From a virus (taxonomy: Duplodnaviria > Heunggongvirae > Uroviricota > Caudoviricetes), in IMG/VR virus record IMGVR_UViG_641736226_000038: DNA of 27,915 nt. One strand, 5' to 3'. Positions 3,001 through 6,000 of the stretch are shown piece after piece (position 1 is the stretch's first letter; every line of letters begins with the position of its first letter). The position numbers are program-made.

Positions 3001-6000
3001 AGAAGTTTTTATGGATGATAAAATCATCGCCTATTTTGTCATCCTGTCTGATGAGGCTATTTCTGTTATTGATACGGAAGGCAATGTTATGTTTATCGCG
3101 GAACATCCAGAAGACATCGCATTACAGGCCGCTGCATATTTCTTCGCTAAGGAGCAGGAGGAAGAATGTAACTGCCCTGTATGTCAGCTTTCCCGACAAA
3201 TTAATTTAATGCATTAACCGGAATCAGGAGTTCCGCCATGAACGCATACCTCACCTGCGACCGCATAGAGGAGCGTCGCTGGATTAATCAGCAAATTCAG
3301 GATGAAAAGGATAAATGGATTGATGATCGGGCGCAGGAGCTTATCAGCATGTTCCCCGATAAACCATTGCTTATGAGCAGCCTTTTTTTACCCAAAGAAG
3401 CCCAACTGGCACTCACTGGCGAAAAAGCTGAAGAGGCGTACAACGATTATATCTCAGCGATCGCCTATGCTCGGGCGGAAGAAGAATGGGAGAGAAAATT
3501 CTCCCCCTGTCCTTTCTGATTTTCAGGACCAAAAAATGTTCGATATCGTTGAATTTGTTAAGCAGCAGGAGCGCTTTTTCTGCGAGGCATTAACTGAACC
3601 GACGCTGACATGGGCGAAGGAAAGTCAGTTTGCAATTCAGCAATTCCAGAAAAATGCCTTTCTGGCTGACACAGCACGGGCAAATCTGCCCAGCGCACAG
3701 AACGCTATCATCAATGTTGCCGCCATCGGCATAACCCTGAACCCGGCCAGCAAGCTGGCGTATCTGGTCCCACGAAAAAAGGCTGTATGCCTGGATATCA
3801 GTTATATGGGGCTTCTGCATCTGGCACAGGTCACAGGAGCCATTCAGTGGGGGCAATGCAAACTTGTTTACGAGAAGGACATTTACGAGTCCAACGGTAT
3901 TGACTGCGCCCCCACGCACAAATACAACCCATTCGTAGACAGGGGCGCACGCATTGGCGGTTATTGTGTCGTAAAAACATCCGAAGGCGACTATCTGACC
4001 GAAGAGATGAGCAACAGGGAAATCGAGGTCATCAGGGCGTGCAGCAAAGCCGGAAATAACGGAGGAAGTAGCCCGTGGGATAGTTTCCCCGATGAAATGG
4101 CCAGAAAAGCCATTGTTAAGCGCGCCAGCAAATACTGGCCCCGTCGCGATCGCCTGGATACAGCTATCGACTACCTGAACACTCAGGGCGGTGAAGGTAT
4201 CATCCTGAATGCTGATCACATCCCTGAGCGTGACGTCACTCCCGCATCAGATGAGATTATCAATGAGATCACTCAGGCAATCACCGAAATTAACAAGACA
4301 TGGGATGACCTGCTTCCCTTATGTTCCAAAACATTCCGTCGCACGATTGCATCACATGAATATCTCAGTCAGGAAGAAGCTGTCAAAACGCTTGATTTTG
4401 TCAAAAAGAAAGCTGCCAGAAACAAGGCCACGGCGGAAGCGAAAATTCACGCCACCACGGAAAATAACAGCGAGGCCGTGTCATGACACCAGAAATTATT
4501 CTCCAGCGAACTGGCGTGGATATTACCAGCCTCGACCAGGGCGATGATGGATGGCACAAGCTGAGACTCGGTGTTATCACTGCTTCAGAAGTTCACAATG
4601 TGATAGCAAAGCCACGTTCCGGCAGCAAATGGCCTGATACAAAAATGTCATACTTCCACACCCTGCTGGCTGAAGTTTGTACTGGCGTGGCACCGGAAGT
4701 TAACGCTAAGTCGCTCGCATGGGGAAAGCAATACGAAGATGATGCCCGTGCCCTCTTCGAGTTTATCGCGGATGTTACCGTCTCGGAAACGCCAATAATT
4801 TTTCGTGACGAAAGCATGCGCACCGCCTGCTCTCCCGACGGTTTATGCAGCGACGGTAACGGCCTTGAGCTTAAATGCCCCTTCACTTCCCGCGACTTCA
4901 TGAAGTTCCGGCTTGGCGGCTTTGACGCTATCAAGCCTGCTTACATGGCCCAGGTGCAATTCAGCATGTGGGTTACAGACAAGGACGCCTGGTACTTCGC
5001 CAACTACGATCCACGCATGAAGCGTGAAGGCCTGCATTATGTCGTGGTCGAACGGGATGAGAAGTACATGACGAGTTTTGATGAGATGGTGCCGGAGTTC
5101 ATCGACAAAATGGACGAAGCACTGGCGGAAATTGGTTTTGTATTTGGAGAACAATGGGGGGTTAATAACTAATGGATGAAGTGATTTTTACTTATAACGA
5201 AGAATCAGCACTGACCGCCGGACAAGGTGGTTTTATTACCGAAACGGGTGCGCATATCATTAACATCACCGAAGCAGAACTCAAGCAATCAGAAAAAGGT
5301 GCCCGATTCATTGAGTTTTCTGGAGAATCCGACGACGGACGGAAAATCCAATATCTCAGTGTTTGTGTTCAGAAGAATGACGGCACTGAAAATAAATTTG
5401 GGGCGAGCATTATTCACGCCATGATGGGATGCACAGGAATTGGGCAGTTAACGCAGCATATGGTTTCCGTCAGTAAATATGTTGCACCTGAGTTTCACGG
5501 AAAGAAAATCGGACTCGTCCTCCAGAAAGTATTAACCACAAACAGAAAGACTGGCGCAGACGGTTACCAGATGGAAATCCGCATTCCATTCATTGCAGAA
5601 ACAGGGCAGACACTGAAAGAAAAAGCTGAAGGAAAGAAACCAGAAACTGTAGCAAATATGGTTTCCACTCTCAAAGACAAAGACAATCGCAGCAAAAACG
5701 TAAACCCGAATCACACGGACGCCCCAGGTTACTGGCAGTACGGCAGCGATAGTTTTTAATTCACAAACAAAACCAGGCTTTAAATGCAGTAAACAACCGA
5801 AGCCTCAATACACTCTCTACACGGAGATATAAATATGAGTCAGCATCAGACAGATGTTAATATTTTCATTAACGACCTCGACGGCGGGGTATTTGTTAAC
5901 AAACTTGGCGCGGTATTAAGTGAAGTTGCCTTTGGCGTAAACAGCACAAACAAAAAAGGAAAGGTATGTGTTGAATTCGAATTATCTTCACTTGATGAAA

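Follow-up and report, generated by a model that had tools for sequence, protein, structure and literature searches.

A predicted RecT-Redbeta hybrid annealase and its lambda-type exonuclease in the phi80-type recombination operon of an Stx2a lambdoid phage

The recombination system of phage lambda pairs the exonuclease Exo with the annealase Bet (Redbeta). The crystal structure of lambda Exo with the C-terminal domain (CTD) of Redbeta (PDB 6M9K), combined with mutagenesis, identified this domain as the Exo-binding site needed for recombination, and L223 and F249 of Bet and L91 and F94 of Exo are each individually essential in lambda (PMC6393309). This 2019 work reported no sequence homologues of the Redbeta CTD (PMC6393309), and a 2023 structural review of recombineering proteins leaves open whether RecT-type annealases bind their partners via a Redbeta-like CTD (PMC11611040). 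Phage phi80 (Lula) carries the gene order gamL-rec(RecT)-exo, and its RecT drives recombination between phage and prophage in vivo (PMC3945230). In Genome Res, a 2025 survey of the Rec modules of lambdoid phages listed phage TL-2011c under SAP type 4, together with Exo, GamL and SSB-2; it proposed, without analysis, 'shuffling of partner interaction domains' for one annealase type serving different partners (PMC12315714). Here we describe the recombination operon gamL-recT-exo-ssb2 of the caudoviricete record IMGVR_UViG_641736226_000038, a sequence of 27,915 nucleotides which is referred to below as the window.

We suggest, and hold it to be quite probable, that this is a phi80-type Red-like operon in which the annealase is a RecT-Redbeta hybrid, the linker, the CTD and exo form a unit of inheritance, and the tail of the annealase docks Exo. 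The window shares with phi80 both the gene order and the three protein families, with identities of 74% for GamL, 82% for Exo, 55% for the RecT body and 59% for the tail. The phi80 tail is closer to Bet than that of the window (76% versus 56% identity). The body of the window protein belongs to the E212-like 'A' type, whereas those of phi80 and CobraSix are of the 'B' type. Unlike phi80, the window has a C-terminal extension of 17 residues on the annealase and an additional SSB-2 gene. With lambda Red it has in common Exo, the tail, the four essential interface residues and an ATGA overlap of the annealase and exo genes; however, lambda has a Bet-type annealing domain and Gam in place of the RecT-type domain and GamL. 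We found no paper describing a hybrid of a RecT body and a Redbeta tail, although an earlier mention in the phi80 genome paper (Rotman et al. 2012) or in the 2024 paper on 8TFU is possible. The genes of the module are already annotated, and it is the domain-level account that appears undescribed.

Assignment of the annealase body depends on the choice of the profile. The protein passes the NCBIfam model TIGR00616 'rect' (65.8 bits, cutoff 52.65, residues 30-202) and gives no match to TIGR01913 'bet_lambda' at E ≤ 0.01. Lambda Bet shows the reverse pattern, matching bet_lambda with 169.5 bits and failing rect. Only these two models discriminate, because Pfam RecT (PF03837) covers both RecT and lambda Bet; the PF03837 match of the annealase (E = 2e-24) was therefore rejected as proof of a RecT-like body. 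Rac RecT falls in the same 'rect' subfamily and has the ...SKAGNNG.PW...EEMA.K... motifs in common with the window body. The window protein is not its equivalog, as it scores 71.6 bits against NF007351, with a cutoff of 296.

The AlphaFold2 (AF2) model of the annealase, built on 21 homologues, has a mean predicted local distance difference test score (pLDDT) of 81.5. Its body, residues 1-203, is confident with pLDDT of about 85-93, and the linker, residues 204-231, lies below 50. The top Foldseek match of the body in the PDB is Listeria RecT (7ub2, E = 7.5e-7, template modelling (TM) score normalized to the target 0.56), and the N-terminal domain of Redbeta is absent among the 50 Foldseek matches listed for the model. 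Judged by profiles and predicted fold, the annealing body belongs to the RecT family and not to Bet, in agreement with the 'RecT-like body' of the preliminary description, and annealing activity on single-stranded DNA is predicted for it; the recombination promoted in vivo by phi80 RecT, a protein built in the same way, is indirect evidence of this (PMC3945230).

The tail gives the opposite picture. A phmmer search of PDB sequences with the whole annealase retrieves the lambda Bet CTD only, via residues 225-299 (8tfu, E = 6.7e-19; 6m9k_D, E = 1e-14), and BLASTP against lambda Bet aligns residues 178-300 only, to Bet 140-261, with 42% identity. In the AF2 model the tail forms helices 239-251, 256-267 and 279-314 and superimposes on the Redbeta CTD with TM 0.87-0.94, a root-mean-square deviation of 0.6-0.9 Å and 52-55% identity (Foldseek), thus fitting homology to the three-helix CTD of Bet 195-261 (PDB 6M9K/8TFU). 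The preliminary description had called the last 80 residues Bet-like. The likeness itself stands, with 56% identity between residues 230-297 and lambda Bet, and the position shifts to residues 225-299, followed by the extension of 17 residues. This extension is seen only in window-type proteins and in the recombinant protein P0003, and helix 3 is predicted to run on into it.

The two parts of the protein have different closest relatives. Over body residues 1-177 and tail residues 230-297, respectively, the identity to the window annealase is 76% and 12% for E212, 73% and 12% for Louie, 56% and 48% for CobraSix, and 22% and 56% for lambda Bet. Rac RecT is 28% identical in the body and has no equivalent of the tail domain; its own tail is short and acidic, without the three-helix CTD, and its partner is RecE rather than a lambda-type Exo. 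The identity to E212 and Louie drops within the linker from 60-76% to 27-32%. RecT proteins of the E212/Louie/HK140 type are the closest kin of the body (73-76%). They share its hosts and its place in the early-left operon of lambdoid phages, but they end in a helical tail of about 85 residues unrelated to that of the window, and their partner is Gp157, without Exo. The domain-wise alignment to Bet and Rac RecT proposed in the preliminary description, with the lack of a breakpoint as the outcome that would refute a domain swap, thus reveals a breakpoint, which the structure model shows as well, and the swap is supported by the discordance between body and tail. According to the sequence and the structure model, the annealase is a two-domain hybrid of a RecT body, a flexible linker and a Redbeta-type CTD.

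The partner gene is a clear lambda-type exonuclease. The window Exo aligns to lambda Exo of the PDB over residues 1-225 without gaps (E = 6e-140), with 86% amino acid identity and 80.7% nucleotide identity over 4482-5157, and a stretch of 20 residues is identical in the two proteins; hence the earlier statement that Exo is close to lambda Exo is confirmed. The E-values of the Exo and tail matches are much too low for a chance likeness. Exo also matches Pfam YqaJ (PF09588, E = 4e-28). Against NCBIfam TIGR03033, a model which spans only 153 positions, it scores 54.4, below the cutoff of 68.05. The assignment to the lambda exonuclease family (PDB 1AVQ) extends to the helix E ridge of L91 and F94. 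With their adjacent, co-oriented and overlapping genes, the annealase and Exo probably form a two-component exonuclease/annealase recombinase (SynExo/EATR), and a specific complex of the two proteins is predicted from homology to 6M9K and from the co-variation described below.

To compare tails with partner genes we analysed 80 related loci, one genome per species, in which each annealase tail and the downstream gene were classed; a lambda-type Exo was defined as at least 50% identical to lambda Exo. Among the best 120 cluster representatives retrieved with the whole protein as a query, 90 carry a Bet-like tail, 25 an E212-type tail and 5 neither. In all 26 loci with a Bet-like tail the next gene encodes an Exo that shares 50-90% identity with lambda Exo, and this holds for none of the other 54 (Fisher p about 1e-21, a statistic which, like the Mantel values below, ignores shared ancestry, and some loci are near-duplicates). 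The junction of tail and exo in these 26 loci is usually a 4-nt overlap. The E212-type tail is followed by a 160-residue 'MuGam-type' Sipho_Gp157 protein (PF05565) and no nuclease in 15 of 16 loci, and the contig of the sixteenth stops there. Across 30 pairs of RecT body and Exo, tail distances follow Exo distances with Mantel r of 0.92 (partial r 0.89 given the body), whereas tail and body divergence are uncoupled once Exo is controlled for (partial r 0.02). In two Morganella loci (L010 and L043) the bodies are 48% identical, the CTDs 85% and the Exos 98%. A third tail type, distantly homologous to the Bet-like one (hhalign probability 95.9%), is paired with YqaJ exonucleases that share 34-42% identity with lambda Exo, a pattern consistent with continued co-divergence of tail and Exo. 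The upstream gamL assorts independently of the tail type in the 80 loci.

In the predicted interface, the contact residues of helix E in the window Exo are Q83, D87, A90, L91, F94 and I95, and the Bet pocket L223/I227/F249/L250 corresponds to L262/T266/F288/V289 of the window annealase. The four residues essential in lambda are conserved in the window pair, namely as L262 and F288 of RecT and L91 and F94 of Exo. Other lineages carry different sets. Lambda-like tails have L/I/F/L at Bet positions 223/227/249/250 and face T or A/L/F/T at Exo positions 90/91/94/95. In Morganella, Proteus and Xenorhabdus the tail positions are F or Y/K or R/M/L and those of Exo M/T/F/Y, and in Yersinia alsatica and Serratia quinivorans they are A/L or M/S/M or L and L or M/L/F/E, respectively. 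Such co-varying sets suggest that contact is maintained between the two proteins, since this is what a physical interface predicts, unlike binding of the near-invariant tail of SSB, the host protein that binds single-stranded DNA, alone.

Selection for SSB is nevertheless the alternative that survives best, although we consider it improbable. It holds that the tail is kept for binding the C-tail of host SSB, or of the phage SSB-2, and that the association with exo is a by-product of adjacency. The Redbeta CTD does bind the C-terminal peptide of SSB via a surface overlapping the Exo site (PMC6393309; PDB 8tfu/8tg7), and the operon has its own SSB-like gene, with a product ending in ...GSDSF. 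However, E212-type tails share their hosts (E. coli, Salmonella, Enterobacter and Citrobacter) with Bet-like ones, and host SSB therefore cannot dictate the tail type. The C-tail of SSB is nearly invariant across these hosts, which also counts against this explanation. The divergence of the tail tracks that of Exo, and the residues varying between lineages are the ones contacting helix E and change together with it.

A natural recombinant was found in the E. coli contig ABZBRG010000062.1 (locus L096), where recT lies at 4001-4939. To about nucleotide 560-593, its recT shares 98% of nucleotides with the E212 type, as does the upstream gene, and from there on it is 96-100% identical to the window type through exo into ssb2. 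In place of gamL it carries an E212-type gene of 102 residues upstream. The crossover falls at codons ~187-198, within the conserved ...EMARKTIVKRASKYWP... sequence that closes the body (KRASKYWP region), and this is the most conserved nucleotide stretch common to both parents. As read from the sequence of this locus, the linker, the CTD, exo and ssb2 moved as one block onto a different body.

Pure hitch-hiking, in which crossovers at the conserved KRASKYWP carry all 3' genes along and tail and Exo need not match functionally, would fit the position of the L096 crossover and the independent assortment of GamL, and the mosaicism of lambdoid phages that arises through relaxed homologous recombination is well documented (PMC3945230). 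We regard it as very unlikely, since the homologous domain of lambda is the Exo-binding site required for recombination (PMC6393309), the essential contact residues are conserved and the peripheral ones co-vary, and none of the 80 loci mismatches a Bet-like tail and a lambda-type Exo, where neutral and frequent recombination should have produced some mismatches. The least tenable explanation assumes no swap at all, the tail being an ancestral domain conserved better than the body and the breakpoint a result of unequal rates: it can draw on PF03837 covering both lambda Bet and RecT, on the BLAST similarity to Bet beginning at residue 178, inside a shared core motif, and on distant RecT-body proteins (Yersinia phage 531, Marinomonas P12026 and the third tail type) whose weakly related tails are consistent with an old presence of the domain, but it is largely refuted by the clean recent recombinant L096 and the discordant identities, as the closest kin of the body carry a tail with no detectable relationship, the Morganella tails are far closer than their bodies, tail and body divergence are uncoupled, and the domain is absent from the RecT proteins of Rac and Listeria.

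Several points weigh against docking of Exo as the reason for the joint inheritance of tail and exo, in addition to the shared ancestry of the loci noted above. Co-inheritance of the two is expected from linkage alone, because the CTD coding region abuts exo. Two pocket positions are unlike those of lambda (I227 to T266 and L250 to V289), and the Exo changes T95 to I and T90 to A also differ. The smaller T266 and V289 together with the larger I95 of Exo suggest a compensatory change, which is however found in a single lineage. Finally, part of the CTD conservation may serve binding of SSB and not of Exo, because the Redbeta CTD binds host SSB via an overlapping surface. On balance we favour docking of Exo by the tail: the idea of the preliminary description that annealase and exonuclease stay matched through the swap gains comparative support from the locus counts, the co-divergence, the co-varying contacts and the recombinant L096.

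The following scheme is modelled, by homology, on the lambda Exo-Redbeta CTD complex as seen in the crystal. GamL would shield linear DNA ends from RecBCD, and the Exo trimer would resect the 5' strand. Each subunit of Exo would hold one annealase tail, with its helix E (A90, L91, F94, I95) seated in the hydrophobic groove of that tail (L262, T266, F288, V289). The docked RecT body would thus be positioned where the 3' single strand emerges, so that it could be loaded directly and anneal this strand to a complementary one. The same surface of the tail may later bind the C-tail of SSB. On the evolutionary time scale, the comparison shows linker, CTD and exo, rather than the annealase gene as a whole, to be inherited together. 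Crossovers in the KRASKYWP region graft this block onto different RecT bodies, and therefore any body gaining a lambda-type Exo arrives with a matching adaptor.

The junction is not a recent one. We rejected a recent transfer of tail and exo from lambda, since blastn similarity to lambda covers exo only (4482-5157). The start codon of exo is precisely where the nucleotide similarity sets in, while the sequence coding for the CTD reaches only about 55-65% identity. The closest tails sampled are 64% identical and come from an Enterobacteriaceae bacterium (L033) and Klebsiella grimontii (L035), both on a 'B' (phi80-like) body. As these kin of the tail sit on the other body type, the window protein combines an 'A'-type (E212-like) body with a lambda-class tail and Exo, joined at an earlier time. 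Its architecture of a RecT body and a Bet-like tail is, by this comparison, old, recurrent and widespread (phi80 and many Enterobacterales prophages), and not a one-off of the window phage.

A further candidate for a natural tail swap, the Stx2a phage JNE082642 (LC727855, locus L001), was rejected. Its RecT is 98.7% identical to the window up to residue 230 and then differs, and the difference is due to an IS3-family insertion which truncates recT, with exo deleted. At 3690-4950 of this locus (window ~4225 onward) the IS3-family orfA/orfB on the minus strand break recT at about codon 230, and the deletion removes the tail, exo, ssb2 and several genes further downstream.

The E212-type tail is a different domain. 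The profiles of the Bet-like and E212-type tails align in hhalign with a probability of only 2.7%. In Foldseek, a protein of the E212 type modelled with AF2 matches Listeria RecT but not the Redbeta CTD; hence we rejected the possibility that this tail is a diverged Redbeta CTD. Loci of the E212/Louie type comprise L006, L007, L013-L032, L048 and L088, with an HNH homing endonuclease gene sometimes placed between recT and the Gp157 gene. The HNH endonuclease was discarded as the partner of the tail, as it is found in a few loci only (Louie, L013) and the conserved neighbour is Sipho_Gp157. E212-type RecT and Gp157 suggest a second pairing of a tail with a partner. Two contigs of ~1.9 kb labelled Micromonospora sp. 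(L014) and Streptomyces sp. (L015) contain a recT-gp157 pair of the enterobacterial E212 type, whose body shares 71% identity with that of the window; they are most likely contaminating DNA in actinomycete assemblies.

More speculatively, a partner-binding tail together with its partner gene could be an exchange cassette, graftable onto any RecT body via KRASKYWP crossovers, with interface codes of each lineage making the pairs orthogonal. We put this forward as a tentative generalization that is somewhat doubtful at present. If it is true, one such code would be T266/V289 with Exo I95 in the window versus I227/L250 with Exo T95 in lambda; moving a linker and tail of ~100 residues would be enough to match heterologous annealases with lambda Exo, or with a partner of the Gp157 type; and the E212-type tail would define a second adaptor-partner interaction, that of RecT with Gp157. 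The comparison as a whole shows that a large subfamily of RecT, with members in phi80 and in Stx2 phages of the O104:H4 type, has a true Redbeta-type CTD which travels and co-evolves with a lambda-type exonuclease and which natural recombinants exchange at a defined junction. In practice, this may provide a design rule for matched annealase/exonuclease pairs in recombineering, along with natural chimeras for testing it. We do not propose a new kind of system; the hybrid is a variant of known annealases within a widespread annotated module, and its mechanism is inferred by homology.

GamL at the start of the operon is of the phi80 type. It matches NCBIfam NF033500 'phi80_GamL' with 149.8 bits (cutoff 40; residues 1-88 of the 89-position model) and PHROG 1050 with E = 1e-48, and gives no match to Pfam Gam (PF06064) at E ≤ 0.1. 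BLAST against lambda Gam aligns only the N-terminal residues 1-15. We therefore rejected GamL as a sequence homologue of lambda Gam, although a similarity of fold between the two has been claimed (PMC12315714). Of the 'short Gam-like ORF' described earlier ahead of the annealase, the open reading frame (ORF) is indeed present, and its likeness to lambda Gam is not upheld. A stretch of 25 nucleotides at 3224-3248, comprising the gamL ribosome-binding site (RBS) and first codons, shares 92% identity with the corresponding RBS and start region of lambda gam. The MNAY start is common to both proteins, which are otherwise unalignable. It may represent a conserved sequence at the boundary of the module.

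SSB-2, the product of the last gene, matches PHROG 743 'single strand DNA binding protein' (E = 1e-68) and has no match in Pfam or NCBIfam. It ends in ...YWQYGSDSF, an acidic and Phe-terminal sequence resembling the host SSB C-tail (..DDDIPF) which the Redbeta CTD binds. From this resemblance, the phage SSB-2 might dock on the annealase tail. No SSB-2 homologues were found in the 80 related loci.

ORF calling gives four tightly packed genes on the plus strand at 3238-5759 (Table 1). The exo start lies within the recT stop in the ATGA overlap (4483-4486), and the ssb2 start lies within the exo stop in a TAATG overlap, so that gamL-recT-exo-ssb2 reads as a translationally coupled operon of an Stx2a lambdoid phage. 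The ORF-finder start of the annealase at 3467, inside gamL, is probably unused. We take the ATG at 3536 as the true start because of the homologue alignments, in which the homologues begin at the equivalent methionine, the 316-aa RefSeq protein and the RBS-like CAGGA upstream. From end to end, the recT product shares 99% identity with the RefSeq cluster 'recombinase RecT [E. coli]' of 316 aa, and the match to PHROG 148 (E = 3e-96) begins at residue 24 of the long ORF.

Table 1. Genes and domains of the recombination operon, in window positions; residues (aa) of the annealase are counted from the ATG at 3536.
Feature	Position	Strand	Description
gamL	3238-3519	+	93 aa; phi80-type RecBCD inhibitor by homology; AGGAG RBS upstream
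recT, hybrid annealase	3536-4486	+	316 aa plus stop
RecT-type DNA-annealing body	3536-4144	+	aa 1-203; ends in the conserved KRASKYWP motif, aa 195-202
Flexible linker	4145-4228	+	aa 204-231; similarity changes here from RecT-like to Bet-like
Redbeta-type three-helix C-terminal domain	4229-4435	+	aa 232-300; predicted docking site for Exo helix E, possibly also for the SSB C-tail
C-terminal extension of the annealase	4436-4483	+	about aa 300/301-316, 17 residues; no counterpart in lambda Bet
exo, lambda-type 5'-3' exonuclease	4483-5172	+	229 aa
ssb2, non-canonical ssDNA-binding protein ('SSB-2' type)	5172-5759	+	195 aa

The DNA of 3238-5759 is 100% identical to that of the Stx2a-converting phage Stx2_H27V05_wrbA / LC645446 and 99.4% identical to that of P13374, phiON-2011 and TL-2011c, phages of the O104:H4 and O103:H25 outbreak type, and the whole module is present in 125 of 5426 complete E. 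coli genomes. RefSeq labels its genes as GamL, RecT family recombinase and lambda exonuclease family protein. The module sits in the early-left operon, where its neighbours are a BsuBI-type restriction-modification pair plus a kil-like gene at one end and xis/int at the opposite end. At 13-1238 the window contains the 3' end of an S-adenosylmethionine-dependent methyltransferase gene, followed by the gene of a BsuBI-type restriction endonuclease of 317 residues, as annotated in phage Lyz12581Vzw, which is 99.5% identical. Upstream of gamL, 2712-2924 encodes a Kil-like septation inhibitor (PHROG 294). Just upstream of gamL, 2936-3217 encodes a protein of 93 residues (PHROG 1635; AbrB-family in the annotation of Lyz12581Vzw). 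We noticed no homologue here of Mog, the GamL antitoxin which phi80 has at this place instead.

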